From an uncultured Chryseobacterium sp. (GTDB lineage: Bacteria > Bacteroidota > Bacteroidia > Palsa-965), in contig CAYUTR010000002.1 in NCBI GenBank assembly GCA_964447465.1, positions 1-53,455 of the forward strand: a DNA stretch of 53,455 nucleotides, written 5' to 3'. The notes under the pieces are model-generated. The model worked only from the letters and a program-made list of their open reading frames with translations. It had not been told where the DNA came from and did no database searches. This document shows positions 27,679-52,713 of the stretch, in pieces. Every line of letters starts with the position of its first letter. The stretch's first letter is position 1. Both the position numbers and the translations under genes were made by a program.

Positions 27679-28512
27679 TTACTTGCAATTCTCCTTCACA
27701 TCTTGATCTACATTTACTCCCATACTTCTCGCAATCTCAAAGTCTGCGCATGCACTCGATCGGTCATTTAGCTTCACTTTGATCAGTGCCCTATTATAGT
27801 AAAAATCTCTTTGTTCTGGGTTCAATCTAATCGCTGTATTCATCATGTTTAACGACTTATCGTATTGCCCTAAGTGATACAATGAGATACTGTAATTATA
27901 AGCCGTCGCATCCAAACTGTCCAATTTAAAAGCCAGTTCGAAATACTCAAGTGACTCACTGAACTTTCCTTGATCTGACATTGTGAGTCCATAATTATTG
28001 TAGACATCAGCTGCTATGTACTCATGTTGAATCAGAAAATCCAGATCCTTAATTGCTTCGTCGTATCTACCTAGTTTTCGTAAAACATCCGCTCGTGATA
28101 TTCTCTCGTAGGATAATGTACTGTCCAAGTTAAGCGCACGCGTGTAATCCGAGTAGGCGCTATCGTATTCTCCCATTCGTTCATACGCCATAGCTCTGCC
28201 CTTAAATGCTTCAGGGGAACTGGGTCTCACTGCAATCAGTTGGGAATAAGAATCAATTGCTTCCGGAAAACGATGTAAATATAAATATGCGTTAGCCTTA
28301 AATATCATTAACCTGTCCCTTGAAAAAGTGTCGCAAACATTAATTCCTTCACATTTCACAATTACATCCTCATAATTACCCTGCTCCATAAGTGCACTGA
28401 TCGTATCCAATTTCAGGTGACAATCTGACTGAACAACTGTATGAGAATTCGGATCACCACAGGCTGTGAAAACCACAATTAATACTAACAATGAAACCAT
28501 TAATGTCTTCAT
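27679..28512 (-). CDS. TPR-repeat lipoprotein (putative immunity protein of the 2471-aa Rhs toxin)
   Basis: Lipoprotein signal 'MKTLMVSLLVLIVVFTACGD', then multiple TPR units ('AIDSYSQLIAVRPSSPEAFKGRAMAYERMGEYDSA...'). It begins 44 nt downstream of the Rhs stop. Confidence 0.7.
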   Translation of the reverse strand: MKTLMVSLLVLIVVFTACGDPNSHTVVQSDCHLKLDTISALMEQGNYEDVIVKCEGINVCDTFSRDRLMIFKANAYLYLHRFPEAIDSYSQLIAVRPSSPEAFKGRAMAYERMGEYDSAYSDYTRALNLDSTLSYERISRADVLRKLGRYDEAIKDLDFLIQHEYIAADVYNNYGLTMSDQGKFSESLEYFELAFKLDSLDATAYNYSISLYHLGQYDKSLNMMNTAIRLNPEQRDFYYNRALIKVKLNDRSSACADFEIARSMGVNVDQDVKENCK

Positions 28513-28556
28513 ATAGCTAAGTAATTTATCAAATTTAGTGTTTTTATACTTTATTA

Positions 28557-31500
28557 TTATGGGCCATATCGTCCTCTTCCCTGAACTCCAACTTCGTAAT
28601 ATAATGGGCCACCGTTTATACCATTACCATAAGCTGCATGATATCCGTGAGCCATTCTCGTTGTGTCTCCACTATATCCTCCACCCTCCCAAGATAGGGT
28701 TTGATAGTTTGGTTCATAAGCGATTAATTTATATTTTCTGTCAACCATAGTCCAATTAACCTGGACTTGTACAGGCGTACTAACTGCCATCAACTTAGTG
28801 CGTGTTCCATATCGCCTTTGACCATCATCATCTAAGTAAAAACCAGGATATTCAACCCAACCCCAATTCTCCTGCATAACTTGTGTCGTCCCGGTCCCGC
28901 TGCGCGTTGTCACCTCAACTCCCGTCCATATAGTCTGAAATCCATAGTTGACACCATCCTCATCAACACTAGCGTTTCCATACCATTCACCATCTAAGCT
29001 CAAATCTCCTTTGTGAGTATTGAGGTTATAAGTGTACCCAAGCCCTACTTCGGGACCGTTATTTTTGGAGGAGTTAAGACCTGTGCCTGCACCAACATTA
29101 AACTGGTCGACAATTTCAGGATCGGGCCCGAGAAGATTGAATTTATCGTAAGGGTCGTATGAATTTACTGCAAAACGTGGTGTATTAACATTGTAGTTTA
29201 GATTGTCTTTACCCGTAGATTCCAACACGGCAGGATTCGTACCACCGCCTCCAACGTCAACCATCGGCATTTGACAATGAACAAAACCATTCTCGTATCC
29301 CGTAACAAAATAATAAGCACCATCGGCCATCCGAACATATCCTGAAATGGTTTCACCCAAATATTTTTCCCCATTTTGCACATCACCCTGACTATGCACA
29401 TTTTCATCAAACCGTACTTTCCCATCAGTTCCTTTAATCCACCCCTCTGCGTCAAGTCCACTTGGATCAACACAGTAAATCGGATTATTGGCGAAAGACG
29501 AGTAAGGGCTTTCCCACGGTTTCACAATAGGATCTTTGCTCATCCATCTTCCAATTCTTGGATCGTATTGACGATACTCCGTCGTATAACTCAACGCTTC
29601 CCCATTCTTAATTTCCGGATCAGATTCCATCCCGTTAAACGCGTACCTGTAGCTGCCACCCGCACGTCCCGTCTGCGGCGCGCCAAACACATAATAATCT
29701 GAGTAAGACTGTACGTCTGCGACATACCATTCCACTTCCGTCGGTGATCCAACTGAAGAGTAGAGTAGGCGCTTATCACTAATCGTAACCAGCACGTTTC
29801 CTAAGTGGTTAGATACCTCGTACTGTTTATATCCAATCGTCCTCGTATAATGCGTCTTGTTGTACGCGCCAGTACTTGCAGTAGGTGTCGCACTATTGAA
29901 CTTTCCGCTTGTGAGTGTCGTGGTGAAATCCTGATAGTAATCACTCTCATCATCCGCATGTCTTATGCCTGCACGTCCACTTCCATAAACACCGTTCTCC
30001 TCGAGATCAATTTTCACTTTGTAATTCCCACTCGTGAGATCTTCAAAGCTCTGTTTGTACACTCCCATCAGGTTTCCACCCGCATCGTATACATACCAGT
30101 AATAAATCCAGTTGGTCTGGTCATCGATTCCGGCTCCACTTGCCTTGTGCGGTTTTACAATTTTGCATAGGCGCTGCTGTCCTGCTGTGTAGAGGAATTC
30201 TACATCTGCGTCACCATATTCAGTACTCGTGCACGCATTCGTGTTGTTTGCCTGGTCTTTTCGTACGGCTTTTACTTTGCCATATGGATTCCACTCTATA
30301 TCTGTAATTCTTTCACTGGCATCATCAGTCATTTCTCCGATCACATCGTACACATAATTTCCACCTGTGCCCTGGTTATCCAGATCATCGCTGTAACTGC
30401 AACTGCCTTGTCCATCCATGATCTTTAACAGGATGTTGCTGTTGTCTTTGTACTTGTAACTCAACGAATCTGACTTCACCGCCATACCTCCTCCACCTAC
30501 ATTTCCAGCAAAGCGGTTTACGTTAGTAATGTTTCCGTTCCAGTCGTACCAGAATTCTTCTTCGAAGCGATCGTTTTGCGTATAGCTGGTTTGCCACTCG
30601 TTGTTAGTGAGTGCTGTGCCATCCATATGAAAGGTTGTGCTCCACTTTATGCGATACAGCTGATCGTACCTGAATGCTCGTCCCTGTACTTCTGTTCCGT
30701 ATTCGTCTGCATCGAGCATAGATGTAGTCATACCTGCAATGTTACCGTTGTACTGGTTGGAAATTCCGGTTCCATACGCGCTCGTGCTCATGTCCGCTTC
30801 AAATGCTGGTGTTGCATTTACACTCGTGTAGTCTGCACTTATCAAACCTACAGCCTGATAGTAACTCAACGTAAATCCGGCGGCATCTGTTCCAATGTTT
30901 CTGTTCAGATTGTTTGCGTCATCCACTCCGTCCTGACCCAAATCCCGCTCCTGAAATTCTCCATTATCACCAATGGTATTTCTGTTCATGCCTTTCAACC
31001 ATCCGTTGATTGTGAACGCATAGTCCATAGCCTGCACGGTCTTATCGCCAATCTCAACCCGTCCAACTCCTCCGGTAGCATAGTAAAACTGCTTTTGTTC
31101 CTTTTCCCAGTGTACGTTGTCTCTGGAAGTGTAAACTACTTTCAGTCGGTTGTCGGCGTCGTACTCGTACTTGTGGTGAAACTCGTCGCGTTCTCCGTCC
31201 TGATAATGAACCGCGTTTACATTTCCACTAATGAGATCGTACTCGTATGTCGTGCTCTTGATATTCTGATTATGCGTTTTCAACGGCGGAGTTTCCTGAA
31301 CAACCTGTTTTACATTTCCATGTATATCATAGCTGTAGAAATACGCACTCAAATAATCGGGCTGTGAACTTGCACTGAAATTGTACAGGTCATATTGTAC
31401 CGTTGGATCATCATCGTACACAACTGCTGTTACACGGTTTCTCGTATTTTCTAGTCCGCTTGGGAATGCTGCAGTTGCGTCACTCGAGATAGAAGGGTCT

Positions 31501-34500
31501 ACATCGTAATACGTAAACGTTACATCATTCTTTGAGCTTGCGCCCGCGATCCACGTTTCCAGTGTAGTACTGGACAATACATCAAAGAAATAATATTCAT
31601 CATCACTTCCTCTCGAACCGGTGTTGTCGGTTTCGAGCGTTGATGTAGTGTGAAGTTCTCCTACTTCATACACTCTGCCCAGTGGATCATACAGCGTATA
31701 ACTGTACCCGGGAGTTCCCATTGCAGCCTGCTTTGAGTTCTGCGAGACAACCATTCGACCCAGGTAATCGTACCAGAAAGATGTTTCGCCGCTTTCGTAC
31801 GTTCCGGTTTGTCCTTCTTCGTTCTGGCTCGCATTAATAGGTTGTTGAAGGCTATTATAAGCATACCGGCTCTTCATGTCGTGCTTTGCCGGAGTGAAAT
31901 TTATACTCGTGGTTGTCGTACCATCACGGAAATCATCACGGTAAATAGTGATCTCTTCTCCATCAGAATATCCGTCTCCCGGTCCGGTTTCACTTTCAGC
32001 AGCCAGGTTAATCAGATTTACTCCTTCCGGCGGAACTGTTTTTACCAGATTGCCCGCCTGATCATAATAGTACAATGTGTAGTAATACTCGTGCAGATCG
32101 TAAGTCACCGAAAATTCTTCTCCTTCGTCCACCGTGAGATTGTCAAGGCACGCTGCCGTATAAGCTTCCATGTAATCATCCGCGGCTGCATATACGTTGT
32201 TCGTGTAGGTGAAGTATGCATTGTATGCCGCGAGGTCGTAGTTCTCCTGCTCGCAGTTTTCCTGTGCGGCCGCACTCAGGTTTGCAATGCCAATATCGAT
32301 CGTGCAGATCAACTCTTCAGGAAAATTGTAAGTAATCAGGTCATCCACATCTGCTTCTTCTACTGCACACGTTGTAAACCAATTGCCTACGTCAGTGCCG
32401 GTATAAGGTGTTGCAGGATCATACTCGTCGTTGAGTGCCGCTGCAATATCACCGTAATCTCCTGGATCGGTTCCAATGCCACGTGCTTCTGCAAAGTCGA
32501 TAAGCATCTGGCAGGTGCAACCAATGTCGGTCGGAACTTCGTTGTCGATTTCATTCGGATTTTCTGCAGCGTCTTCTACTAAACCTTCCAACAGTGTTAC
32601 CAGTTCTCCCTGCGTTGGATTGTCGCAACCGCCCCCGTAAATGTCTATCAGGGTATTGCGCATGTAGAGAATAGGAAATCCTTCGGGCGTGAGTGAAGGG
32701 TAGTCGTCGTCGGACACTAAATATCCGTCGGTGTCAATCACGGGTACGTCATCGTCAGCATACGTACTTCTGCAACTTGCGACACCGGCATCACCGGCAA
32801 AGCCTTGTTCGATCACCAGCGTTCTGTAATAGAAATAAACTGAACGAAAGAATTGATAGGGTGTGACCTGTCCTGCTGTTGGTGTTGCATCAATCAGGCC
32901 TTCTGTGGTGCCATCGCCGTGGAGCATCTCAAAGAACTCAACTGTTTCGGTGTTGAGGTTCGCGTCTTCGTCTCCAAGGTGAATGTCATCCGGATCTTCA
33001 ATCACATACCAGATGCTGAAGTGATAAGGAAGATTAGCATCGGTTTCATCTTGTCCAAGGAAAAAGTTCTGAAGATAGTCTTCCAGTAAATCTGTTGCAG
33101 TAATAGAAGGATCATCGCACACTTCAAAATCACAATCGCCTGCAAAACGCGGGTCCTGATTGAGTATATTTTCATCGTAATTCAGGTATCCGGAATTATC
33201 GCCATCCACACCCGGCAGTGATGTATTCTCCGTCATGTTCAACGGATTCCAATAGTCACCATCCGAACCGCTCACATGACCATCGGTATTATACAGCGTT
33301 GCCATTTCATATTCCCACGAATAACTTTGTGTGTACACAATGGTATCCCAATCTTCATGCGGCGGGTCGCTGTCATAGATGTACTCACAGCTCCAGTTGC
33401 AGAAGTAATTCCATGTGCAGTATTCGGGATGGTAGGGAACCAATAATTCTGCCCAATCTTCATCCCAATCGGCTTTTACTTCCGTCCAGTTGGTAAAATC
33501 TGTTCCGCCCCACACTGCATTGATTGCCGCGATCATCGTGCTGCTCTTGTCGTGCGCACTCAGCCAGCCGTACTCGTTGTACTCGGTATTGATGGTCTGC
33601 GATCCGGTGGTTTCATTGTAAATAAACTGATCAGGAAGATTATCAAAATACTGTCCGCCCGGCGACATATCACTTACCATTGCCTGGTATTTCAGTTCAC
33701 AAGGATCCGTTACTATTGGTGCGTCACACAATGTTGCCTGACATGCGGCAATCAACATTGGTCCAGCATCTGTTGACTCATTACCCTGGTCCTCCAGTTC
33801 CACTCCTGCATCATTGTAATAGGTTCCGTCAATGAGATAGTGCAACTCACACGCTTCATGACAATCTGCAGCGCAGGGGATTGGTGTAAGTTCTACGAGC
33901 GGCACGCAGGATGTTTCCGGATCGGCCAATTGGGCATCAAGAAAATCCTGTCGCACGTCAGCAAGGTGTGCCTGGTTGAGAATGGTGCGCTTTTGCACAC
34001 GATAGGTTCCCGGGGTAAGTGTAACCGTAAAGGTGATAGCTTCCGCAGTAGTAGCGTACTCCTTGATCATTTTGGTTGTACCCACGGCAGGGACGATATC
34101 AATAGAATCTCCGCTTACCGCATTGATGACACTGATTTTTACATCGTATACACAGTCTTTGCAGATGTCGTAACACTCATCTTCCCCGCAGTAAGCTGCG
34201 GAGTTGAGTACATACACAAAATCATAATCGCTTTCTTCGGTCACCGTAAGTGTCACCATCGATTCTGTCCCGTCTCCATTTGTAGTGGGTCCGTTGTTCA
34301 CCAGCAGACCTTCGTACATGCTCACCGCTGTGTTCGGATTGCCATTAGGGTTGTCAATAGCCTCGAGATTATCAGGAGCTTCCCCCGCGAGTGCTGTTGC
34401 GATGACGTTGCCGCTCTGATCGATGTAACTCACGCTCACTACGCCGTTCGGGTCAATCACAAAGTTCTTCTTGTAATGACTCGCATAACCAACTTCATTG

Positions 34501-35972
34501 CCGAATAAACGGTCGAGCTGGTACTGTGAAGCAGTGCCGTAGAAATACTGCGTTTCATTACTACCGTTTAAACCAAGGTTATCCCCAGCCGCACCCGATT
34601 TTACCGGGCGGTTGGTGCCGTCGTTCATGTACACGACTCTTGCATACGGATAACCTTCTGCATCGGGAACGGCGGCATCCATACCTACCGTAGGACTTGT
34701 TGCACTATAGTATGTTCCTGCACCACCACTTGTCATTGTTGCGGGCGCTTCAATTGTTATGTCGGTATCAAAATCGTTGCAATCATAATCCTGATCGGCC
34801 ACGTAAAACGTAATTCCTTCGCTCGTTTGCGGGTATGGTAAAACTCCTGCTGCAGGGCGCCCTTCAAAATCGTAAATGGTTTGTCCGATGATGACATTGC
34901 CATCAGTGTTCACGGTAGTGATCGCTTCTCTTCCACGCATCATGCCATCGTAAAACTCCGCTCCGTCCATGCGCTTGCCGTCTTCTGCAAAACCTGAGCT
35001 GTACGACCAGTTCATCAGTGGAAGCAATCCGAATTCGAGATCGTAACGTGCTCCGCTGTAAGTAGAAGTGTTTCCTGTGTTGCCCGTTGTAGTCCAAACT
35101 CCTTCACCCCGCGTGATGTAACTATTGGTTTGATAATTGTCCCAATCGATTCCAACTCCTCTAACACGCATCACTAAAATGCCTCTCGGGAATGCAAGCG
35201 GAATATCATAAAACTGATTCGGAACATTTACACGTGTGGCGTTTCTCCAATCAAAATCCATGATAGTAGTGTACGGATATACTTCATTACCCATGTCGAT
35301 AAACAACCATTCCAGATCATAACTCTCTGCACCTTGAATATAATTCCAGGCAACATTTAGTTCGTTTGTCGTTGATTGATAGTTGGTGAAAATTGTTGTA
35401 GGAGTTGCCGCCTCAAGATTGTAGTAGCGTTCTACATTCATCTCTAAATCAAGATAGATATCGTCGAGAAATGCAGGGATCGTTGTTGCATTGATCCAGC
35501 CAACTACAGGCGTACCACCGGCATCCCACTCAGTATAATCTATACCTGTGCTCGCATTCACAGTAATGGCGATTTTATGTGCACCCGGATAAACTTTCTT
35601 GTCACGATCCGTATAGCGGATTCCTGTTTCGGGATCGTAACTAATTTGAAGCGTTTCGTTTGAAATTAAAGTGGTACTTCCGGCTGAATTAGTGGTTACC
35701 ACATCATATTTTACAATGAGCAGCCAACTGTGCGTAGTGTATGTCCGCAACGCATCGTCATAACGTAGCACCACCGCACCTTCCGAACCTTCCACAGCGA
35801 AAACTGCAGCCCAGCCCGTTGGAAAAGGATACCACTGGTCAGTCAACGACAATGTTGCATTGAGCGCAATTGGATTACCCAGAGTAGCGGATAAACTATT
35901 CACTGTGCTCTCGATCGCAGCGAAACTTACTGAAGAAATCAGCAGGCATAAAATAACGAATAACTTTCTCAT
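28557..35972 (-). CDS. Rhs/YD-repeat polymorphic toxin, 2471 aa, with signal peptide and ~297-aa variable C-terminal domain
   Basis: Signal 'MRKLFVILCLLISSVSFAA'. Many YD repeats ('YYYDQAGNLVKTV', 'WYDYLGRMVVSQN', 'YTLYDPLGRVYEVGE', 'YSYDIHGNVKQVV', 'YEYDADNRLKVVY'). The core end 'YRYAFNGMESD...YRQYDPRIGRWMSKDP...NPIYCVDPSGLD' lies at ~29451-29483. The CTD (28560-29450) has no motif I recognise. Confidence 0.9.
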   Translation of the reverse strand: MRKLFVILCLLISSVSFAAIESTVNSLSATLGNPIALNATLSLTDQWYPFPTGWAAVFAVEGSEGAVVLRYDDALRTYTTHSWLLIVKYDVVTTNSAGSTTLISNETLQISYDPETGIRYTDRDKKVYPGAHKIAITVNASTGIDYTEWDAGGTPVVGWINATTIPAFLDDIYLDLEMNVERYYNLEAATPTTIFTNYQSTTNELNVAWNYIQGAESYDLEWLFIDMGNEVYPYTTIMDFDWRNATRVNVPNQFYDIPLAFPRGILVMRVRGVGIDWDNYQTNSYITRGEGVWTTTGNTGNTSTYSGARYDLEFGLLPLMNWSYSSGFAEDGKRMDGAEFYDGMMRGREAITTVNTDGNVIIGQTIYDFEGRPAAGVLPYPQTSEGITFYVADQDYDCNDFDTDITIEAPATMTSGGAGTYYSATSPTVGMDAAVPDAEGYPYARVVYMNDGTNRPVKSGAAGDNLGLNGSNETQYFYGTASQYQLDRLFGNEVGYASHYKKNFVIDPNGVVSVSYIDQSGNVIATALAGEAPDNLEAIDNPNGNPNTAVSMYEGLLVNNGPTTNGDGTESMVTLTVTEESDYDFVYVLNSAAYCGEDECYDICKDCVYDVKISVINAVSGDSIDIVPAVGTTKMIKEYATTAEAITFTVTLTPGTYRVQKRTILNQAHLADVRQDFLDAQLADPETSCVPLVELTPIPCAADCHEACELHYLIDGTYYNDAGVELEDQGNESTDAGPMLIAACQATLCDAPIVTDPCELKYQAMVSDMSPGGQYFDNLPDQFIYNETTGSQTINTEYNEYGWLSAHDKSSTMIAAINAVWGGTDFTNWTEVKADWDEDWAELLVPYHPEYCTWNYFCNWSCEYIYDSDPPHEDWDTIVYTQSYSWEYEMATLYNTDGHVSGSDGDYWNPLNMTENTSLPGVDGDNSGYLNYDENILNQDPRFAGDCDFEVCDDPSITATDLLEDYLQNFFLGQDETDANLPYHFSIWYVIEDPDDIHLGDEDANLNTETVEFFEMLHGDGTTEGLIDATPTAGQVTPYQFFRSVYFYYRTLVIEQGFAGDAGVASCRSTYADDDVPVIDTDGYLVSDDDYPSLTPEGFPILYMRNTLIDIYGGGCDNPTQGELVTLLEGLVEDAAENPNEIDNEVPTDIGCTCQMLIDFAEARGIGTDPGDYGDIAAALNDEYDPATPYTGTDVGNWFTTCAVEEADVDDLITYNFPEELICTIDIGIANLSAAAQENCEQENYDLAAYNAYFTYTNNVYAAADDYMEAYTAACLDNLTVDEGEEFSVTYDLHEYYYTLYYYDQAGNLVKTVPPEGVNLINLAAESETGPGDGYSDGEEITIYRDDFRDGTTTTSINFTPAKHDMKSRYAYNSLQQPINASQNEEGQTGTYESGETSFWYDYLGRMVVSQNSKQAAMGTPGYSYTLYDPLGRVYEVGELHTTSTLETDNTGSRGSDDEYYFFDVLSSTTLETWIAGASSKNDVTFTYYDVDPSISSDATAAFPSGLENTRNRVTAVVYDDDPTVQYDLYNFSASSQPDYLSAYFYSYDIHGNVKQVVQETPPLKTHNQNIKSTTYEYDLISGNVNAVHYQDGERDEFHHKYEYDADNRLKVVYTSRDNVHWEKEQKQFYYATGGVGRVEIGDKTVQAMDYAFTINGWLKGMNRNTIGDNGEFQERDLGQDGVDDANNLNRNIGTDAAGFTLSYYQAVGLISADYTSVNATPAFEADMSTSAYGTGISNQYNGNIAGMTTSMLDADEYGTEVQGRAFRYDQLYRIKWSTTFHMDGTALTNNEWQTSYTQNDRFEEEFWYDWNGNITNVNRFAGNVGGGGMAVKSDSLSYKYKDNSNILLKIMDGQGSCSYSDDLDNQGTGGNYVYDVIGEMTDDASERITDIEWNPYGKVKAVRKDQANNTNACTSTEYGDADVEFLYTAGQQRLCKIVKPHKASGAGIDDQTNWIYYWYVYDAGGNLMGVYKQSFEDLTSGNYKVKIDLEENGVYGSGRAGIRHADDESDYYQDFTTTLTSGKFNSATPTASTGAYNKTHYTRTIGYKQYEVSNHLGNVLVTISDKRLLYSSVGSPTEVEWYVADVQSYSDYYVFGAPQTGRAGGSYRYAFNGMESDPEIKNGEALSYTTEYRQYDPRIGRWMSKDPIVKPWESPYSSFANNPIYCVDPSGLDAEGWIKGTDGKVRFDENVHSQGDVQNGEKYLGETISGYVRMADGAYYFVTGYENGFVHCQMPMVDVGGGGTNPAVLESTGKDNLNYNVNTPRFAVNSYDPYDKFNLLGPDPEIVDQFNVGAGTGLNSSKNNGPEVGLGYTYNLNTHKGDLSLDGEWYGNASVDEDGVNYGFQTIWTGVEVTTRSGTGTTQVMQENWGWVEYPGFYLDDDGQRRYGTRTKLMAVSTPVQVQVNWTMVDRKYKLIAYEPNYQTLSWEGGGYSGDTTRMAHGYHAAYGNGINGGPLYYEVGVQGRGRYGP

Positions 35973-44376: not shown

Positions 44377-47300
44377 TTATTCTTCTTCGGCTGGTGGTGG
44401 ACAATTTGAGAGTATGATATTGGAATCCTGTTCGAAGCGGAGGTACCACTTTTCGTTTTTATCGTTGATGACTTCAAGAATGTAGAATCCATCGGCGAGC
44501 GCGCCGGAAGGTGTGATATCACATCCCACTGTGTTGAGATGATATCGGTTGTCGCCATATACAACTTGTAACTGTAGCGTTGCCGGCAGCATGCTGTTAG
44601 ATGACACTAATGTGTGTTCATCGTCGTAGATATTAAACAACAGGTCTCCAGATTCTGCGTACTCTTCGTCGAAGCGGAAGAACAATCTACCGTTAATGGC
44701 TTTGTAATATCCTCCGTCGAGTTTTTTCTTCAATATTGCAGTAGGAAAATAGTTGACGGATACCGCAGTGGTTAAGTATGCGAAACTGCTCACGAACGTT
44801 ACGTTTGTTACACTTGAAATGTCTCCGCGATAACCAGCGATGAGTATCGATGATGCTCCCAAATCACTCCATTGAGTACCGTTCCAGTTAGCAACGCGTA
44901 AATCTCCATACACCCCAGTATTGCAGCTGTTCTTGTTCCACGACAACCCAACCTGTACGTTGGAAGAACCAACTTGTCGTTCGAGTGACCAGTGTTCGCA
45001 CGTACTGAGATCCGTTAATGAATCAACAATTGTTGCGCCTTGTGACTGCGCGGTTGCAGTATAAATTGCCTGAAAACGGTCAGATGTATTTGAAGGAGCT
45101 GACATATCCAGCGGGTGATAAGCTATACTATCATGTAATGTTGTATCTCCGAGGTGAAACTTGAATGGATCATTTCCGGTTTTCCGAATAGGCCCGCACA
45201 CATAAGCACTATCATCATTAAACAAGGTGCATACTGCACCATCCGGAAATGCGAGGTAATTGGTAGCGTCAGTAATCACACGTCCCTTCGTCAGGATCAT
45301 CACCGAATTCACCTGCATCGGATTCTGAAGATTTACCGATGTCGGTGAACCTGCAGAGTAACTTCTGTTGACTGTTACATTGAAAAAATTAACGGTGCCG
45401 GTTCCTTTAATTTTGTTATGTCCGATTCCATCGAAAACAACTGTGCTGGTTGAGTAAGTCCATGTGCCAACACTGTTCCAGTCGCCCCCAACGTAAATTT
45501 TGTTTGACCCTGCTGAGCAAGTTGCGCCGGATGCGATGGTGAAATTGTTGTTTGCGTCTACGTGACCGGTTAGTGTGCGTGTATTTCCATTGATCGTAAT
45601 GTTGTAGAACGGCATGCAGTTCGTTGAACCGGATTGCTGACCATCAAGATTTTTAGTTCCATAAAATGCGACAGTGGAAGTTCCCGGTGAAACAGTTCCT
45701 TGGGTGTAAATCCAATTGCCCATGATAGTGGTAACACTGGCAAGCGTGAGTGTATCTGTACTTTTATCAATTGTAACATTAGGGAGCCCACCTGTCCCTG
45801 CAGTGCCACTTCCGGTAATTGTTTGAGCACTCGCTCCATTCAACGTAATAGTAGCGTCGCCACCGCCGCCGGTGCCAGTGTTCGTAATTACAATGTGTTG
45901 GTGCACGTAAATCTGTCCCGAATCAATAATAATGTTACCAACGCCTGCAGTTTCAAAATTCCCGCCTGCAGTCAGGATTGTTGATGGGCTAATCGTAAAA
46001 ACGGAACTGAGTCCCGTGGAGGCCCCAAATGAAATCGTGAAGAGGGTGAGCGATCCTGAAATTGTTTTGCTTCCGGAAAAGTGTAATGTACTGCTACCAG
46101 GATCAACTGTACCGGCCGTGTATGTAAAGTTGCCTTGTATATTAACATAGTCGATAAGGTATAATGTTCCCGTTGTTTTATTAATGACCACATTCGGTAA
46201 TCTGGAATTGCCCCTTGATGCATTACCGGTGAGTGTCTGACTGCCCGATCCATTAATGACCATGGAAGCTGATCCTCCTGCGGAATTTCCATTAAATGTA
46301 TTGGAGAGCGTAATATTTCCCTGAGCATAAATTGTTCCTGTGTTGATAGCTACCAGGTTAGACCCGTCTATTGACAGAAGGCCAGTGATAGTTAATGTGT
46401 TTCCGCTTGAGATCGTAAATGTTGCGTTAGCCGAATTGTTGAAGCCGACATTAGCGAGAGAATGTGAACCGGAAATTGTTTTAGTATTCCAGAAGCAGAC
46501 TGTACCAGTGCTCGTTGATAAATTGCCAGCGGTATACGTCCAATTTCCAGCGACGGTGATTGTACTGTCCAACGTAAGTGTTCCGGAACTCTTGTTGATA
46601 GTAACATTCGGGAGTGCAGAATTTCCTGCCGTGGCGTTTCCGGTCACGGTCTGACTTCCGGTACCATTAATAACAATGGACGCAGAGCCTCCTCCACCCG
46701 TTACCGGATTTTTCAGGTCAATATTTCCCTGTGCATGAATAGTGCCGGTGTTAATCGTAATATTACCCAAGACGTTGTTTACATATTCGATGGTACCCGT
46801 AGTAGTTAGTGTTGTTCCACCAGCAATCGTATATACTCCGGCAGCGCCAAATCTTACAGAATACAACGTGTGAGAACCGGTAATAGTTTTTGTTCCCGCA
46901 AAGTGAATTCTGCTTGTACCGGCACTCACCGTACCGGCTGTATATGTCCAGTTACCTAATACTGAAATTGTATTAGAAAGTGAAAGTGTTCCTGAACTTT
47001 TGTTGATGACCATATTTGGTAATCGACCCGTAGCACCTAAAGTACCGCCGGTTAATGCTTGACTCCCGGTACCATTAAGCGTAACCGTTGCAGTTCCGCC
47101 ACCGCCGCTGAAATTGTTCGTGATGACTACATCACCGTTTGCTGAAATGCTCCCGGTGTTTAATGTCGAGGCGACAGTTCCAGAAATCAGTAAGGTATCA
47201 CTCACCGTTAAGGTTGTTCCTCCTGCAATTGTATAGGTGCTGGTAGAGGCAGGTGCAAATTCCAGTTTGTAAAATGTAACCGATCCTGTGACAGTATTGG

Positions 47301-47787
47301 TAGCGGTGAATTTCATTCGTCCGTTGTTATGCGCGAAACTTCCGCTGCTATAAGTCCAATTGGAATTTGTTGTAAACGTACCGCTGGTGCTCGTAAATGC
47401 GCAACCTGAAATTGTGACGGCACTGGTACATGTAATTGCAGCAGAGCCTCCAGCAAAAGTTCCTCCGCTAAATACAGCGCCACCAGTCCCGATTGTTATT
47501 GAGAAAAGGCCGTGGGTGATGGTGCCCGTGTATCCACTACCAACATTCAATCGTTTCACATTTACTGCAGCATCCAGTACGCAAGCACCTGTTCCGTTAC
47601 CATCGAAATATGCAGTATCGGTTGATCCGGGAACAGAAGCACCCGAGCCTCCACCGCTTGTTCCAGACCAACTCAATGTGGTATTCCACGTTCCGGTTAC
47701 ATTCATAATGTAATAACGCTTACCGGCGTTCGCATCTGCCGAAAAGAACAATAGAGCGATCTGTGAAAGAAATAATAGCTTCTTCAT
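44377..47787 (-). CDS. Secreted repeat protein (1136 aa), 5-6 copies of a ~115-aa Gly/Thr-rich beta-helix-like unit
   Basis: Signal 'MKKLLFLSQIALLFFSADANA'. The recurring unit is 'KTI(T/S)GSH.L..V.F...FTI..G.TLT...INTGTI.AQGNI.L.N...GGGSA..VINGTGSQT.TG...G...LPNV.INK.(S/T)GTL.L....V.GNWTYTAG.VS'. The C-terminal ~90 aa ('GFYILEVINDKNEKWYLRFEQ') is vaguely T9SS-CTD-like. Confidence 0.7.
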   Translation of the reverse strand: MKKLLFLSQIALLFFSADANAGKRYYIMNVTGTWNTTLSWSGTSGGGSGASVPGSTDTAYFDGNGTGACVLDAAVNVKRLNVGSGYTGTITHGLFSITIGTGGAVFSGGTFAGGSAAITCTSAVTISGCAFTSTSGTFTTNSNWTYSSGSFAHNNGRMKFTATNTVTGSVTFYKLEFAPASTSTYTIAGGTTLTVSDTLLISGTVASTLNTGSISANGDVVITNNFSGGGGTATVTLNGTGSQALTGGTLGATGRLPNMVINKSSGTLSLSNTISVLGNWTYTAGTVSAGTSRIHFAGTKTITGSHTLYSVRFGAAGVYTIAGGTTLTTTGTIEYVNNVLGNITINTGTIHAQGNIDLKNPVTGGGGSASIVINGTGSQTVTGNATAGNSALPNVTINKSSGTLTLDSTITVAGNWTYTAGNLSTSTGTVCFWNTKTISGSHSLANVGFNNSANATFTISSGNTLTITGLLSIDGSNLVAINTGTIYAQGNITLSNTFNGNSAGGSASMVINGSGSQTLTGNASRGNSRLPNVVINKTTGTLYLIDYVNIQGNFTYTAGTVDPGSSTLHFSGSKTISGSLTLFTISFGASTGLSSVFTISPSTILTAGGNFETAGVGNIIIDSGQIYVHQHIVITNTGTGGGGDATITLNGASAQTITGSGTAGTGGLPNVTIDKSTDTLTLASVTTIMGNWIYTQGTVSPGTSTVAFYGTKNLDGQQSGSTNCMPFYNITINGNTRTLTGHVDANNNFTIASGATCSAGSNKIYVGGDWNSVGTWTYSTSTVVFDGIGHNKIKGTGTVNFFNVTVNRSYSAGSPTSVNLQNPMQVNSVMILTKGRVITDATNYLAFPDGAVCTLFNDDSAYVCGPIRKTGNDPFKFHLGDTTLHDSIAYHPLDMSAPSNTSDRFQAIYTATAQSQGATIVDSLTDLSTCEHWSLERQVGSSNVQVGLSWNKNSCNTGVYGDLRVANWNGTQWSDLGASSILIAGYRGDISSVTNVTFVSSFAYLTTAVSVNYFPTAILKKKLDGGYYKAINGRLFFRFDEEYAESGDLLFNIYDDEHTLVSSNSMLPATLQLQVVYGDNRYHLNTVGCDITPSGALADGFYILEVINDKNEKWYLRFEQDSNIILSNCPPPAEEE

Positions 47788-47807: not shown

Positions 47808-48551
47808 TTAATTCGAAGGAGTGAAGGTGTAACGATATCCTTGCGCAGGAATGAAATTCAGAAATGGTGTTTCGGGATTACTTTCATTCACTTCTGCAGT
47901 TTGTGGAGCAGATGGATTTCCCGACACAAACAATCCGCGATCCTCTGTATTCATATTCATATTGAGAATTCCAATACGATAATTTTGTGTAGAGTCCAAT
48001 TGGACCACCACGGTTGTGTCTTCCATCTCTGTTAATTCATTGAACACTATGTTCTCAAATGAATTTGTCCGCAACGACCCTGGACCTACCCGTACTTCCA
48101 CATTCCCGTTTTCTTTCAACCACACCTGCCACGACTGCACTTCTTCGCCCGTCGCATTCGGACTGCAATTCAAATACTGAATTTTCAGAATATGATTTCC
48201 GGCAGTCCCCGACAGCTCATAACCTAAAACGGAATGATTGCCTGTGGTGGCAACATGATCACCCACTCCGGAAAAAGCAGTTAACGCATAGTTGCGATCA
48301 TTATCAAAAACGAGATAACCGTTAGTTTCAACTGTGAGCGAGTCGAAATTTCTTCCGAGATAATTAAAAGTGAATCCAAGTGGTATTTTGTAGGAGAAGT
48401 TCCATGCAGTGTTATTACTATTAAGTATAGTCTGAGAATTCAGCTCATTCCACGATACTGAATCCGTACTTACCGAGTAGTTGAAATTCTGTCCTGCCGA
48501 AATACCGTAACCGGCCAGAACAAAAGCGATGATGAAAAGGATTCTATGCAT
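47808..48551 (-). CDS. Secreted protein, 247 aa, unknown function
   Basis: Signal peptide 'MHRILFIIAFVLAGYGISAGQ' and a beta-rich composition ('IPLGFTFNYLGRNFDSLTVETNGYLVF'). Confidence 0.55.
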   Translation of the reverse strand: MHRILFIIAFVLAGYGISAGQNFNYSVSTDSVSWNELNSQTILNSNNTAWNFSYKIPLGFTFNYLGRNFDSLTVETNGYLVFDNDRNYALTAFSGVGDHVATTGNHSVLGYELSGTAGNHILKIQYLNCSPNATGEEVQSWQVWLKENGNVEVRVGPGSLRTNSFENIVFNELTEMEDTTVVVQLDSTQNYRIGILNMNMNTEDRGLFVSGNPSAPQTAEVNESNPETPFLNFIPAQGYRYTFTPSN

Positions 48552-48685
48552 GTTGAAGTTATTTAGCGATTCAATATTTCAATTGTCATCCTGAGCATTT
48601 CGACTTCGCTCATTATAAACTCCGTCGAAGGGTGATTTGAAATACGACTGCAAGTAACAACAATCAAATGCGGAAGTAAATAGAT

Positions 48686-48719
48686 AACCAACAAGCGTAT
48701 GTCAAAACCAACAAGCGTA
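48686..48719. promoter_or_regulatory. Two perfect direct copies of the 14-mer 'aaccaacaagcgta' (20-nt period)
   Basis: Copies at 48686-48699 and 48706-48719, in the gap between the gspF-like stop (48740) and the 247-aa gene start (48551). The same 14-mer recurs at 52782 (1 mismatch) and 52858 (inverted, perfect). Confidence 0.6.
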
Positions 48720-48739
48720 GTTAAAAGCGGAATTTTTAG

Positions 48740-49873
48740 TTAACCAAAGGCCGTTCCCAACTTAAACATTGGAAGATACATCGCGACAAGAATAATCGCG
48801 ACCATCACTCCGAGGAACAGAATCATTACGGGCTCAATAATACTTCCGAGAAGAGATGTCTCGTGATCGATTTCATCGGAGAGTTGTTGCGATAGTTTTG
48901 CGAACATTACATCCACCTGATTGACTTCTTCTGCGACACGAATCAGCGATATCATGCGCTTCGGGTAAATACTGAACTTTCCGAGGCTTTCATGCAGCGA
49001 AACACCTGCAAGAATATCCTTTCGTACTGAAGACAATGATTGTTCAATCGGATAAAACCCGACCATCTTCTGTACAAGTTCCAACGCGTCGATAAGATTT
49101 GTTTTGGACATCAGCAAGAGCTGCATGGAATGCGCAAAACGTTCGACATATACTTTTCGCGTTATTTTTCCGATGAATGGAATACGCAGGATGAACCAGG
49201 AAGATATCCTCCGGTACGCTTCCGTTTTTCGTTGCGCCCATAAAGTGAAAATCACCACTGCGACAAAAAGAAGAAACCAAGGACCGTAATTCCCCAAAAT
49301 GTGTGATGCAGCGATAATCCCTTTCGTAAGTGCAGGAAGTTCCGCTCCGAACCGCGATAGCATGTCGGCGAACATGGGAACCACAAAACGAAGCATGAAA
49401 ACAACAGCCAGGACTGCAACAGTAAGAACAATGATTGGATACGAAAGCGCACTGGTGACTTTTCGTTTTTGTTTGATCTTCTTACTATAGTACGTCGCCA
49501 GATCCTGAAGGATCACATTCATGCGTCCGGACTCTTCTCCGATCCTCAAACTGTAAAATTCATACGGCGAGAATTTATCCGTACTTCTGATAGCATCCGG
49601 CAATGTTGCACCTGATACGATTTGCTCAAGAATGGTTGAATAGAGGACTTTGTCTTCCTTTTTTTCTGCTTCAGCCGAAAGCAATTCGAAAGCTGTCCGG
49701 ATATCTACACCAGCTGTTAATAGAGTATGAAGTTCACTGTAGAACCGTTCCTTCCTTCGATCGTTAAGACCAGTTCCGAATAGGTTGATCTCGCGGGACA
49801 AAATGGATTTCTTCCCGGCCGAAGGTTTTGAACCTGAATCCGTACGATTCGATATTTCTGAAATGTCAATCAT
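48740..49873 (-). CDS. Type II secretion / type IV pilus platform protein (GspF/PilC family)
   Basis: Two T2SSF-like halves ('FYSELHTLLTAGVDIRTAFELL' and 'FAHSMQLLLMSKTNLIDALELV') with three hydrophobic TM segments. The 377-aa size is typical. Confidence 0.8.
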   Translation of the reverse strand: MIDISEISNRTDSGSKPSAGKKSILSREINLFGTGLNDRRKERFYSELHTLLTAGVDIRTAFELLSAEAEKKEDKVLYSTILEQIVSGATLPDAIRSTDKFSPYEFYSLRIGEESGRMNVILQDLATYYSKKIKQKRKVTSALSYPIIVLTVAVLAVVFMLRFVVPMFADMLSRFGAELPALTKGIIAASHILGNYGPWFLLFVAVVIFTLWAQRKTEAYRRISSWFILRIPFIGKITRKVYVERFAHSMQLLLMSKTNLIDALELVQKMVGFYPIEQSLSSVRKDILAGVSLHESLGKFSIYPKRMISLIRVAEEVNQVDVMFAKLSQQLSDEIDHETSLLGSIIEPVMILFLGVMVAIILVAMYLPMFKLGTAFG

Positions 49874-50366
49874 CGATCTTCATCAGATCAACTGAACTTA
49901 ATTTTCGATTCAAAACCAACTCTTGCTTATTTCCATTTATCAGAATTGTACATTTCATATCACAAATACTCACATCTTCGATATTATCCGAATCATATTC
50001 GCTTCCGGATTTGACATCAGATATCTGAGCATGAAAAGTATCTGTTCTCCCTGCGCCTTCTCTCAGCACAAACTCGCTGAGGAAATTATACTTTACGTCA
50101 TGCTCTCGATCTCCAAAGGACATTGAAAAACCTTTTTCGGTCCAGACAACAATCTGTGCATTTTGAAAATCCGTGGAGAAGCATCGTTTAAAAAAAGATA
50201 TTTCTTCAACTTGTGTTACTGAGGAAAGCGAAGATTGTGCGAGATTACTAACAACCCGAAATGTCGTCCACACAGCCGAGATTACAATTCCGCTTACGAT
50301 CATTCCGACCAACAATTCAGTCAAAGTAAACGCATGGTACTTTTTATCGGATGAAAATAAACTCAT
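49866..50366 (-). CDS. Pseudopilin / prepilin-type N-terminal methylation-motif protein
   Basis: 'HAFTLTELLVGMIVSGIVISAVW' is the classic (G/A)FTL.E + hydrophobic helix. It overlaps gspF-like by 8 nt. Confidence 0.75.
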   Translation of the reverse strand: MSLFSSDKKYHAFTLTELLVGMIVSGIVISAVWTTFRVVSNLAQSSLSSVTQVEEISFFKRCFSTDFQNAQIVVWTEKGFSMSFGDREHDVKYNFLSEFVLREGAGRTDTFHAQISDVKSGSEYDSDNIEDVSICDMKCTILINGNKQELVLNRKLSSVDLMKIDD

Positions 50367-50688
50367 AATACTCAGATATTACTTTTCCCTTAGGAGTAAT
50401 TGCTCGCAAGTTCAACGTAGCAAGATGTCTATTTTGTTCACTGGAATTAACTCTTCGTTCAATAAAAAATCCGTCAGCCTGAATGTCTTCATCAAATAAC
50501 ATTCCTTCAGTTTTGCACCTGACGGCTTCTGTTTTTAATGCAATTTCCGCCCGGATCACAAGATAATTTCGTTGATTATCTGTCATTGAATTGAAAACTG
50601 ATAGTGAAATAGAAAAACACGTCATGATAATAATCATGGCGAACATTGACTCCAGCAAAACATATCCCTTCAGTTTCAGTTGAGCCAT
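50344..50688 (-). CDS. Minor pseudopilin-like protein (114 aa)
   Basis: 'LKGYVLLESMFAMIIIMTCF' is a G|x..LE-type prepilin N-terminus variant. It overlaps both neighbouring genes. Confidence 0.55.
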   Translation of the reverse strand: MAQLKLKGYVLLESMFAMIIIMTCFSISLSVFNSMTDNQRNYLVIRAEIALKTEAVRCKTEGMLFDEDIQADGFFIERRVNSSEQNRHLATLNLRAITPKGKVISEYYEFIFIR

Positions 50689-51941
50689 TGAATAACATGA
50701 GCTGTTTCAGATTTGTTGAATAAAATGGATCCGAGCCAAAACTCAGAGCGCTGACTACAATCAATAATTGCATCCATCAGATGATTTTCATAAACAGCCG
50801 AGTTTGTTCGCAGCGTTATCTTTTGACAACACAAGGAACCAAGAACGCTTCCTTTTAAGTCAACGCTGCCATAACAATTTATCGCACCTTCAATGACAGA
50901 CTCTGTCTCAAGAAGAATATTTCTTTCATGGTTAATATCATTCGTTTGACAGTCCAGAAACAATTCACCACACACCTTTGAACTATTCCCAATAACGATC
51001 GCCACTTTTTCTATAGCGCCACTCAAGGGAATAATTCCCAGGACCGTTGGATATCCGAGATCAACATCATTTCCAACTATTATTGAGTCGCGTGCGAATG
51101 CCTGGAAAGATCCGCGAACAGATTTTTGAATTTCAATTCTTGGAGCGATCAGAATAATATTTTCGAGCAATGCTTCTTTCGAAACAATTATTGACACGAT
51201 GGAGCGTAATACAATTTGACCGGTGAACTGCTGACTTGTTAAGTGAATCGGTAAATCAGATGTGATGATCAACCTCTTTCCGGAAAATGATTGTTCGATT
51301 ATCTCCTCGCTGGAAATTTCATTCCACGAAACGATCGAATCGAATTCACTTGCAGAAGTGGTAAACAACGCCGTTACTCCCTTCATGCGTTCCGTATCAT
51401 ACGACGGCATAAATCTTGAAGAAGGTTCGATTGTACCGCGAACCAGCTCACGTCCGGAGTAACTCTTTCCTTCTATGTACGAACGTTCAACACCCGCTTT
51501 AGGCAAAAAACATTTGCCATTTAGCTGCGTCGAACCCGTTATGGATAATGGTCGATCCATGTCAGCAAGCCATAAAGCGAATGCATCTTCCTTTTCCTGA
51601 ATGTTTCCAGTCATTGCAATCGTTTTCCACGTGATGTTTCCGGTATGGGCGGTCGAAACACAAATGTCATAGGCTCCCCACGGTTTTCTCTGCACCAGAA
51701 CAGAATCTTTACCACGACCAAAAAGATCAATGTCCACATCGTCCTCAACATTCATGGCATCTACTGTGCAGCAGTAAATCACACCTGATTCGGCATTCCG
51801 CACAACCTCTTCATGAATACTATTGGTACGCAGAATACATCTATGGTAAAACTGAGCAAGCACTACGCTCCCGGTCAACATTCCAATGATAATGCTGATC
51901 GCAAGTGCATAGAAGAGAGAACCGCCGTTGAGTTTATTCAT
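50676..51941 (-). CDS. Large pseudopilin-like protein (GspK-like position; no Glu5)
   Basis: 'MNKLNGGSLFYALAISIIIGMLTGSVVLA' is an N-terminal hydrophobic helix after GG, followed by a 390-aa globular part. It overlaps the flanking genes. Confidence 0.45.
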   Translation of the reverse strand: MNKLNGGSLFYALAISIIIGMLTGSVVLAQFYHRCILRTNSIHEEVVRNAESGVIYCCTVDAMNVEDDVDIDLFGRGKDSVLVQRKPWGAYDICVSTAHTGNITWKTIAMTGNIQEKEDAFALWLADMDRPLSITGSTQLNGKCFLPKAGVERSYIEGKSYSGRELVRGTIEPSSRFMPSYDTERMKGVTALFTTSASEFDSIVSWNEISSEEIIEQSFSGKRLIITSDLPIHLTSQQFTGQIVLRSIVSIIVSKEALLENIILIAPRIEIQKSVRGSFQAFARDSIIVGNDVDLGYPTVLGIIPLSGAIEKVAIVIGNSSKVCGELFLDCQTNDINHERNILLETESVIEGAINCYGSVDLKGSVLGSLCCQKITLRTNSAVYENHLMDAIIDCSQRSEFWLGSILFNKSETAHVIQWLN

Positions 51942-52713
51942 GGTCGCTCTGCTCCTCTAACTTTTTGTCTTTTCGTTTGAAGATTTCACCGATTCGAATC
52001 TTCATTGGACGCTTCATTGTTTGTTTGTTTTCCTCAGGCTCAGATTTTGACTTTTTTATTTTTCTGCGTGTACTCACTTTCACGGAGTCTGCGGAGTTAG
52101 TTGCAGATGTATCTGTTTTGACAGCCTTCCTTTTCCGTCGTTTGTTGGCATCTTCAATTGAATCGTTTTTTATTTTGGGTACAATGGCAACGCCATTTTT
52201 GTATCGAATTACGCTATCAGAACTATCTTGGCTAAAAATTGTAGTTTTCCCGGTACGCTTGCCATTCCTATAATATATTCGCATCGTCCGTTGACCCGAG
52301 GAATCATACAGTTCTCTTGATCCATCAGCCACTCCCATTGAGTAGTGAGTTCGTTCGCTGACCTTACCGTTTAAATTCCATGTAGTCCATATGCCTTGTT
52401 TCAATCCACGATCAAACACTCCCTGACACTTTAAATTATGATTTTTATAATAGGATGTATAACTGCCATGTAGCAACCTGCCGCTGAATCCTCCGTCTGA
52501 AGAAAGTATCGAATTCATGTTATACCAGTAATACGAATGTCCCATCTTCGCCTTGCACTTCACTTCACTCGTAATAGCGTGAGCATGTACACTTGAATCC
52601 GGACTATTAATATAAACGGGCGAGGTAGCGATCCGGGCACTGCAATTATTAATATTTAGAAATGTGATCATACTGCACAACAATAAGCACTTTAATTTCG
52701 TTTTCATGATCAA
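51934..52713 (-). CDS. Secreted MORN-repeat-variant (YwqK-like) protein with a Lys-rich C-terminal tail
   Basis: Signal 'MKTKLKCLLLCSMITFLNINNCSA'. The repeats 'GLKQGIWTTWNLNGKVSERTHYSMGVADGSRELYDSSGQRTMRIYYRNGKRTGK' resemble MORN variant repeats. Confidence 0.55.
   Translation of the reverse strand: MIMKTKLKCLLLCSMITFLNINNCSARIATSPVYINSPDSSVHAHAITSEVKCKAKMGHSYYWYNMNSILSSDGGFSGRLLHGSYTSYYKNHNLKCQGVFDRGLKQGIWTTWNLNGKVSERTHYSMGVADGSRELYDSSGQRTMRIYYRNGKRTGKTTIFSQDSSDSVIRYKNGVAIVPKIKNDSIEDANKRRKRKAVKTDTSATNSADSVKVSTRRKIKKSKSEPEENKQTMKRPMKIRIGEIFKRKDKKLEEQSDHE

Follow-up and report, generated by a model that had tools for sequence, protein, structure and literature searches.

Gene arrangement of the locus

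The window analysed here, a stretch of 53,455 nucleotides (nt) from an uncultured Chryseobacterium sp. (contig CAYUTR010000002.1), carries part of a type II secretion system (T2SS)-like machine next to a module encoding an Rhs polymorphic toxin and its 2117-aa partner protein, hereafter the giant. Both belong to a run of 13 long co-directional open reading frames (ORFs) on the minus strand, unbroken from position 52713 down to 27679. The plus-strand ORFs within the run are all located inside large genes, and no further minus-strand gene lies upstream of 52713. The original prediction, made from the sequence, had described this run as one 25-kb unit with very short junctions and with repeats in its larger gaps. 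The ORF list bears out the run and its junctions, which are exact when internal ATG starts are used for the Skp-like gene (44374) and the lipoprotein gene (43797). The first of these ATGs lies 2 nt from the stop of the gene for a 1136-aa repeat protein (44377), the second 1 nt from the stop of the Skp-like gene (43799), and two further junctions measure 2 nt (43186/43189) and 17 nt (35972/35990). The two larger gaps, 48552-48739 (188 nt) and 36683-36832, indeed hold repeats, a 20-nt tandem direct repeat and a 25-nt inverted repeat, respectively. The single unit did not stand: the 188-nt gap speaks for two separate transcription units, and the two parts also occur separately in other genomes. 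A single 25-kb operon was therefore rejected, and the run consists of two separable modules, A (52713-48740) and B (48551-27679).

Two scans provided the comparisons. One was anchored on the giant, took one genome per species and yielded 80 loci, in which neighbours were scored by searching the ORFs with the window proteins (phmmer). The reverse test, a metagenome scan anchored on the window GspF, also yielded 80 loci. Individual related loci are cited by number (L001 etc.).

The pseudopilus block

The window holds a GspF/PilC platform protein and prepilin-type pseudopilins, as found in T2SS/type IV filament machines. The first gene (51934-52713, likely ATG 52707) encodes a secreted MORN-repeat-like protein (MORN_2, 27.2 bits, below the 29.6-bit cutoff), whose family adjoins the following 421-aa protein in 12 loci (family clustering). 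The 421-aa protein (50676-51941) matched no Pfam or NCBIfam domain. An N-terminal hydrophobic helix and a conserved place, directly upstream of the two small pseudopilin genes and the GspF gene in 50 of the 80 GspF-anchored loci, suggest a large minor-pseudopilin-like protein whose position is that of GspK. A minor pseudopilin of 114 aa (50344-50688) with the prepilin-like motif G|YVLLES and weak similarity to ComGE and ComGF is followed by a 166-aa pseudopilin (49866-50366) with the prepilin motif AFTLTELLV, an N_methyl match of 26.3 bits, above the Pfam cutoff, and a match to TIGR02532. The block ends with the inner-membrane platform protein GspF/PilC (48740-49873; T2SSF 5.6e-42, TIGR02120 2e-69). 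The pseudopilus genes named in the original prediction were thus recovered in part: GspF and the 166-aa pseudopilin stand, the 114-aa protein has its motif only, the 421-aa protein is without a domain match and the MORN-like protein stays under the cutoff.

The GspF-anchored loci display the usual order of the machine, namely pilin, Peptidase_A24, T2SSE ATPase, secretin, PilN-like protein and four small proteins of no family, then an optional MORN protein, the 421-aa protein, two small pseudopilins and GspF. Its components were recognized by family models (T2SSE 4e-129, Secretin 4e-36, Peptidase_A24, PilN-like protein, pilin), and the small pilins include weak ComP-like similarities. Component set and order are those of the putative "Bacteroidetes T2SS" of Cytophaga hutchinsonii (chu_3191-3202) and of the putative T2SS of Flavobacterium johnsoniae (Fjoh_0611-0622). 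Published work ties the machine to cellulose use, and mutation of the homologous system in C. hutchinsonii costs the cells certain outer-membrane proteins along with cellulose use (PMC5553014). In the trees of Denise et al., the Bacteroidetes system branches with the type IVa pilus (T4aP) and not with T2SS, and it is perhaps a separate novel secretion system (PMC6668835). Module A is only a part of this T4aP-derived "Bacteroidetes T2SS", the minor-pseudopilin and GspF sub-block; it differs from the described machines in having no ATPase, secretin, peptidase or major pseudopilin in the window, and no Rhs cargo is named for the machine in the published work.

The giant partner protein

The giant (36833-43186) comprises a signal peptide, an N-terminal motif, a predicted 12-strand barrel, an Rhs/YD-type sheet, a CBM-like domain and a C-terminal YD repeat. 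Over 4,360 homologues make up its family; almost all measure about 2,100 aa, and every named one derives from Bacteroidota and is called hypothetical. No Pfam or NCBIfam model (E <= 0.01) and no PDB sequence model matched the protein, even with a 13-sequence profile, and no toxin domain was found in it. Its two ends are the most conserved parts, the last element being a very conserved YD repeat.

Two AlphaFold models (residues 1-1200 and 1000-2117), each built from a 43-sequence alignment, give an outline of the architecture. The N-terminal model (pLDDT 73) consists of the signal-peptide helix, a highly conserved motif at residues 55-118 and twelve long antiparallel strands at residues 119-329. 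Its best Foldseek matches are outer-membrane barrels, i.e. PgaA, a designed transmembrane barrel, OmpG, KdgM and OpcA. Most of these strands keep a strict alternation of hydrophobic and small or polar residues across the 43 sequences (e.g. 0.01 versus 0.70 and 0.74 versus 0.00). The inverse-autotransporter barrel model did not match the giant, and neither intimin nor invasin was among the top Foldseek folds. On the basis of the model, an outer-membrane barrel in the giant is likely. The C-terminal model (pLDDT 80) contains a clean CBM16-like sandwich and matches SGS1, RhsA, VgrG-Rhs, TcdB2-TccC3 and a teneurin-like protein in Foldseek. For these five Rhs/Tc shells the probabilities are 0.85-1.0 (0.96-1.0 for SGS1, RhsA, VgrG-Rhs and PDB 4O9X, 0.5-0.9 for the remaining Rhs/Tc matches), and some further Rhs/Tc matches reach 0.5-0.8. 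A profile comparison of the giant with the Rhs protein (hhalign) aligned a single YD repeat at 17% probability, so by sequence the giant does not count as a canonical Rhs-repeat protein.

The giant had been called TcB-like. This holds for its architecture, that of a toxin-less, YD-ending Rhs partner with a partial Rhs/Tc fold, and fails for family membership, since no SpvB, TcdB-mid or propeller model matched and the profiles of the giant and of its shorter relative f24 find no TcB in the PDB. Affiliation to the TcB family was rejected, as neither an SpvB N-terminal nor a TcdB middle domain was found in the giant and no TcA stands alongside; no TcA/VRP1-like family was present among the window proteins scanned.

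The f24 family (1,100-1,200 aa) is homologous to the giant (hhalign 98.5%) and shares its N-terminal motif and its C-terminal YD end; the inspected member (L093) is without the barrel segment. The N-terminal motif of the giant family resembles the start of SpvB and Rhs shells, and a weak DUF6531 match was obtained in locus L083. Many loci (L016, L027, L040, L043, L060, L078) contain a second large gene of up to ~2,500 aa between the giant and LolA3 genes, which carries only the conserved C-terminal YD end of the giant (e.g. L043, 15646-21324), suggesting a duplicated or split partner.

The Rhs toxin and its putative immunity gene

The gene at 28557-35972 encodes a DUF6443-type Rhs polymorphic toxin of 2471 aa with a signal peptide, YD repeats at about residues 1300-2000 and an Rhs core at residues 2093-2173 (TIGR03696, Rhs_assc_core, 5e-13). 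The self-cleavage motif DPSGL goes with this core, reading ...YCVDPSGL|DAEGW. YxYDxxG motifs occur at residues 1301, 1546, 1873 and 1960, and the protein is similar to Tse15 (2e-7). The DUF6443 match is weak, and the Pfam RHS_repeat model did not match within E 0.01. The C-terminal toxin region (297 aa, nt 28560-29450) had no match in Pfam or the PDB, and no orphan Rhs fragments were seen downstream of the gene. A tetratricopeptide repeat (TPR) lipoprotein (27679-28512; TPR_2 4e-30) follows in the position of an immunity gene and is, from this position, probably the immunity protein. Rhs toxin and TPR lipoprotein had both been named in the original prediction, and the family matches agree with it.

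Strains of a 59%-identical relative encode either an Rhs protein of 2472 aa with a SUFU-family gene or one of 2429 aa with a 213-aa gene; differences of this kind in the Rhs C-terminus and the gene behind it are how polymorphic toxins and their immunity genes behave. DUF6443 is the conserved part of the Rhs partners. In the shorter Rhs proteins that accompany f24 (1,100-1,500 aa) it is located directly after the signal peptide (3e-27). Three isolate loci (L164, 10001-18747; L165, 10001-19212; L166, 8839-19669) have a split Rhs, consisting of a DUF6443 protein and a separate RHS-repeat toxin protein, the latter carrying Ntox47 in Pedobacter sp. P26.

Chaperones and accessory genes of module B

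Three small periplasmic or membrane-associated proteins accompany the giant. The Skp/OmpH-like periplasmic chaperone (43799-44374; OmpH 2.3e-18) and a lipoprotein of about 200 aa (43189-43797), a conserved partner of the giant with the lipobox VMAGC and a Cys that is nearly invariant in the family, are encoded upstream of it. A LolA3-family periplasmic carrier (35990-36682) is encoded downstream (NCBIfam LolA3_fam NF053579, 4.2e-29, 101.7 bits versus a cutoff of 83). The chaperone, lipoprotein and LolA-like calls of the original prediction are thereby supported. By family clustering of the loci, these three proteins accompany the barrel-bearing giant and not f24, in line with a part in bringing the giant into the outer membrane.

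Like the window protein, the published LolA3 proteins of F. johnsoniae (Fjoh_0605) and Porphyromonas gingivalis (PGN0947) belong to the LolA3 family; they are without known function and do not pair with LolB (PMC11885536, PMC13103446). The window LolA3 differs in being embedded between the giant and Rhs genes, a placement that suggests a dedicated role. A PDB search with the LolA3 family profile did not retrieve any LolA structure. The lipoprotein was considered as a LolB-like partner of LolA3, without support: its family profile finds nothing in the PDB and aligns with the LolA3 family at 3% probability (hhalign).

Two further proteins without a family match are accessory. The secreted 247-aa protein (47808-48551) has homologues at the same position in L001, L013, L050 and L161, and the 1136-aa repeat protein with a signal peptide (44377-47787) is variable, being present in 15 of the 80 giant loci. 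In other loci, secreted proteins of 200-320 aa without a Pfam match (family f13) are encoded in arrays that start right behind GspF, precede a giant-like gene and number up to ten copies (L129, 7619-17000; L132, ~11200-14300); L059 (Pelagihabitans, 8394-9344) has one copy between Skp and the lipoprotein.

Distribution of the giant-Rhs module

The 80 giant loci come from Chitinophaga, Flavobacterium, Niastella, Mucilaginibacter, Pelagihabitans and many metagenome-assembled genomes. An Rhs gene lies directly downstream of the giant in 66 of them, and most loci without one are truncated contigs. The lipoprotein was found beside the giant in 49 loci, the Skp-like protein (upstream) in 36 and GspF in six. 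LolA3 was scored in 24 of the 80 loci by phmmer, whereas family clustering placed it in 35 loci between giant and Rhs. Module B is hence a widespread polymorphic-toxin module of the Bacteroidota, with a core of Skp-like protein, lipoprotein, giant, LolA3, DUF6443-Rhs and a probable immunity gene. The gene order in the 59%-identical relative is 253 aa, 992 aa, OmpH, lipoprotein, giant, 239 aa and Rhs. One Parvicellaceae assembly contains two complete Skp-lipoprotein-giant-LolA3-Rhs modules (L030, contig 2; L033, contig 8), and the module can thus be multi-copy.

Linkage between the machine and Rhs modules

In the GspF-anchored scan, a giant-like, f24 or Rhs gene was present within 10 kb in 22 of the 37 T2SS-like loci with a total flank of at least 10 kb, and in 10 of the 17 with both flanks of at least 9 kb. 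This adjacency of 59% compares with a rough estimate of ~2% for a random 20-kb window. The linkage is spread over the GspF lineages, at least one positive locus occurring in 16 of 25 GspF clusters at 70% identity and in 7 of 10 at 50% identity; among other GspF types, Rhs was found in none of five visible loci. The possibility raised with the original prediction, that homologous pseudopilus clusters are never linked to Rhs or TcB-like genes, does not agree with the 22 linked loci.

The module beside the machine takes two forms, either Skp-lipoprotein-giant-Rhs or the shorter f24-Rhs pair, and the pairs directly after GspF are without Skp or LolA3 genes. Its position varies: the module may stand downstream of GspF or upstream of the machine, flank it on both sides or be encoded on the opposite strand, in at least six gene orders, some of them inverted. 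In L044 (Gilvibacter), L059 (a Pelagihabitans isolate) and L094/L096, a complete and tightly packed T2SS-like operon is followed, after a gap of 87-430 nt, by the giant block on the same strand.

Published locus tags suggest that F. johnsoniae carries the same neighbourhood, with LolA3 as Fjoh_0605 and the T2SS as Fjoh_0611-0622 (PMC11885536, PMC5553014). The identity of Fjoh_0604 and Fjoh_0606 as giant and Rhs was not confirmed, as no locus-tag match was obtained, and a search seeded with a Flavobacterium Rhs fragment gave matches from other species only. Zhang et al. (2012), who list for Bacteroidetes a TcdB/TcaC route, mention no link to secretin, pilin, OmpH or LolA. Literature searches found no paper tying the Bacteroidota T2SS-like machine to Rhs and nothing on DUF6443, consistent with the earlier statement that no described system with a pseudopilus-Rhs association was known.

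A shared upstream element and other intergenic features

The 14-mer TACGCTTGTTGGTT occurs four times in the window, in every case in one of the two regions upstream of the blocks. Two tandem copies with a 20-nt period on the minus strand (48686-48719, within the 20-nt direct repeat 48686-48725) are located 135-170 nt upstream of the second block. The other two form an inverted pair between the MORN and LytTR genes, at 52782-52795 (minus strand, one mismatch, ~75 nt upstream of the MORN ATG) and at 52858-52871 (plus strand, exact). The window contains no further copy with up to two mismatches, and both blocks thus carry the same cis element, probably a shared operator. No exact copy occurred in 2.86 Mb of related loci, and the box is not conserved elsewhere; other two-operon loci (L124, L132, L106) share only AT-rich 10-14-mers between their intergenic regions.

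A stand-alone LytTR DNA-binding protein (53172-53455, plus strand, running past the window end; Pfam LytTR 1.9e-10) is encoded divergently from the cluster and is a candidate regulator. The DNA binding known for LytTR regulators (AgrA, AlgR-type sites) agrees with tandem copies spaced at 20 nt. Between the giant and LolA3 genes, the gap holds a 25-nt inverted repeat (36729-36753 with 36788-36812, 88% complementary, 34-nt loop), which could form an intra-operon RNA hairpin or be a REP-like element.

Neighbouring genes

The region 1-27000 encodes ImuB/DnaE2-type polymerases, two tyrosine recombinases, a D12 methyltransferase, a KAP NTPase and a dynamin-like GTPase, and the toxin cluster thus borders a variable island. 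An imuB/dnaE2-type mutagenesis cassette occupies 730-5627, its first gene encoding a Y-family polymerase with IMS domains and its second a DnaE2-like error-prone polymerase; a PD-(D/E)XK protein is encoded nearby (77-553). The segment 7825-21353 comprises the two tyrosine recombinases, the D12 adenine methyltransferase with a 599-aa partner, the 1020-aa KAP-family NTPase, the 794-aa dynamin-like GTPase and neighbours without annotation; this content suggests a defence or mobile island that adjoins the toxin cluster. Between this island and the cluster lies a plus-strand trio (22849-25293) of a weak ATP-grasp protein (319 aa) and two proteins without annotation (259 and 221 aa).

Proposed mechanism and alternatives

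The preferred explanation, to which we assign a probability of roughly 50%, is that the two modules are co-regulated and that the giant-Rhs toxin module is served by the T2SS-like machine of which module A is a part. A (52713-48740) and B (48551-27679) would be adjacent co-regulated operons, with the ATPase, secretin, peptidase, major pseudopilin and a PilM/N-like protein encoded elsewhere in the genome. Both the giant and the Rhs protein have Sec signal peptides and hence enter the periplasm. There, the giant would insert its 12-strand barrel into the outer membrane, aided by the Skp-like chaperone, the lipoprotein and LolA3. Docking of the Rhs protein would involve the conserved C-terminal YD repeats of the giant and the DUF6443 of Rhs, roughly as TcB docks TcC; being the most conserved parts, the two ends of the giant and DUF6443 are natural candidates for this contact. 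The Rhs shell would enclose a self-cleaved polymorphic toxin, to which the downstream lipoprotein would give immunity. Either the folded Rhs capsule or the giant-Rhs complex may then leave the periplasm or reach the cell surface by way of pseudopilus and secretin, and would there act against neighbouring cells. The original prediction had proposed that a pseudopilus-based machine exports or assembles a Tc-like Rhs cocoon; the gene linkage behind this proposal recurs, whereas export and cocoon assembly are what we infer from it. Gene identities, conservation of the module, the recurrent linkage and the common cis box are observations; barrel insertion, docking of giant and Rhs, T2SS-dependent export and the antibacterial role are deduced from gene context.

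Several observations weigh against such a service by the machine. Within the window, tblastn with families from related loci detected no ATPase, secretin, prepilin peptidase or major pseudopilin, and the 188-nt gap separates A and B such that a single transcript is not supported. T2SS-like genes occurred within 10 kb upstream of the giant in only 8 of the 80 giant loci, a lower bound since the Rhs gene uses up the downstream flank. The giant-Rhs locus of the 59%-identical relative has no pilus genes, and in three isolates the 3-10 kb visible past the Rhs gene contained no T2SS genes. In Pelagihabitans pacificus (L059, 16466-25726) the gene after the giant encodes not an Rhs but an LRR/Ig protein of 3087 aa that carries a CHU_C-associated Ig domain; the giant family is thus not tied exclusively to Rhs partners. 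The barrel prediction is of moderate confidence only: Foldseek E-values are weak (3e-3 to 1e-1), and across residues 121-330 most block means of pLDDT fall at 45-70, a few blocks reaching up to 92. The TM-scores of the Rhs-like half are low (0.07-0.14). Finally, an Rhs capsule of such size may exceed the width of a secretin channel.

A more far-reaching version, which we regard as possible and put forward only tentatively, is that the T4aP-derived "T2SS" is a dedicated Rhs delivery machine, i.e. a new route beside type VI secretion (T6SS), Tc and Sec/T7-type routes, with the giant or f24 as a TcB-like adaptor. This adaptor might be presented by the minor-pseudopilin tip complex, like PilY1 in type IV pili, or anchored in the outer membrane next to the secretin.

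The main rival is credible, if rather doubtful in our estimate. It takes the blocks as independent neighbours: the giant-Rhs pair would export itself via the giant barrel, in inverse-autotransporter or two-partner style, the pseudopilus would secrete other cargo, and adjacency would reflect shared regulation or a shared variable region. Most modules do stand alone, since 72 of the 80 giant loci are without a T2SS-like gene within 10 kb upstream and relatives as well as isolates carry the giant-Rhs module alone. The module also brings its own chaperones, the barrel of the giant precedes ~1,800 residues as in the topology of type Ve autotransporters, and the window cluster borders the integrase/methyltransferase/KAP NTPase/dynamin-like island. 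Independence does not, however, explain why the module is next door in 22 of 37 T2SS-like loci across deep GspF lineages and several gene orders, nor why f24-Rhs pairs, without Skp or LolA3 and in L093 with an f24 that has no barrel, stand directly after GspF. The 14-mer box common to both upstream regions, with an exact match in each, and the lack of a match to the inverse-autotransporter barrel model argue against it too. T6SS main clusters are usually accompanied by effectors, and many modules of effectors stand as orphans. The asymmetry seen here, in which machines often have a module nearby and modules seldom a machine, resembles this biology and is no proof of dependence.

Export via type IX secretion (T9SS) is less likely, and we consider it improbable. 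The giant and Rhs would cross the outer membrane by this main Bacteroidota route with unrecognised sorting signals, and the pseudopilus genes would be unrelated. The Sec signal peptides of both proteins, as in T9SS cargo, the CHU_C-associated Ig domain encoded after the giant in L059 and a PorP/SprF gene ~10 kb away in L165 are compatible with this route. On the other side, no C-terminal sorting domain (type A or B) was found by Pfam or NCBIfam models on the giant, the Rhs or the repeat protein, nor did a T9SS C-terminal-domain model match any window protein scanned; no T9SS genes were found in the window, and the recurrent T2SS-like linkage is left unexplained. Models for Hcp, VgrG and PAAR likewise matched no window protein scanned. 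The absence of T6SS markers and of a clear T9SS sorting domain on Rhs and giant had been noted originally and is upheld by these scans; an assignment to T6SS or T9SS was rejected accordingly.

Least likely, and improbable in our view, is a non-secretory type IV pilus or DNA-uptake filament (adhesion, competence) with incidental Rhs proximity, which agrees with the weak ComGE, ComGF and ComP-like similarities of the small pilins and with the branching of the Bacteroidetes system with T4aP rather than T2SS (PMC6668835), but not with the loss of outer-membrane proteins and cellulose use in C. hutchinsonii mutants (PMC5553014) or with an adjacency so far above the random estimate.

Comparison with known systems

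The gene pair resembles TcB-TcC of the Tc toxins (TcdB2-TccC3, PDB 4O9X), in which a toxin-less, YD-ending partner is likewise followed by an Rhs protein with core, self-cleavage motif and variable toxin, and the C-terminal half of the giant matches TcdB2-TccC3 along with other Rhs shells. Unlike TcB, the giant has no SpvB, TcdB-mid or propeller match and no TcA-like gene nearby; it has instead a predicted membrane barrel and a CBM-like domain, and its module includes Skp, lipoprotein and LolA3 genes. The Rhs partner is also far larger (2,471 aa) and carries DUF6443.

With the T6SS Rhs effectors (RhsA, Tse15, VgrG-Rhs), the Rhs protein shares the shell, the core and, probably, a polymorphic C-terminal toxin and a downstream immunity gene, besides the similarity to Tse15 (2e-7), and both are scattered as "orphan" modules away from their machine. 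It differs from them in the Sec signal peptides and in its surroundings, since no PAAR, VgrG, Hcp or other T6SS genes were found and the neighbouring machine is a type IV filament system. The twelve predicted strands and the dyad pattern of the giant recall inverse autotransporters (type Ve), whereas the barrel matches are weak and no family model matched. The components are each of a known kind; what appears new, as no precedent was found in the literature, is the recurrent pairing of a filament machine with Rhs, the giant/f24 partner family and the presence of LolA3 inside the module.

Implications for Bacteroidota

The Bacteroidota T2SS-like machine has no defined cargo, and recurrent gene linkage now makes Rhs toxins a candidate cargo. 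The DUF6443-Rhs proteins, the giant family and LolA3 are similarly without known function or export route. The link between machine and Rhs is a single testable idea that covers all four, and F. johnsoniae, which by its published locus tags apparently has the same neighbourhood, is a genetically tractable host. If true, this link would represent a new way for Gram-negative bacteria to deploy Rhs toxins and would explain the many Rhs genes in Bacteroidota without T6SS.

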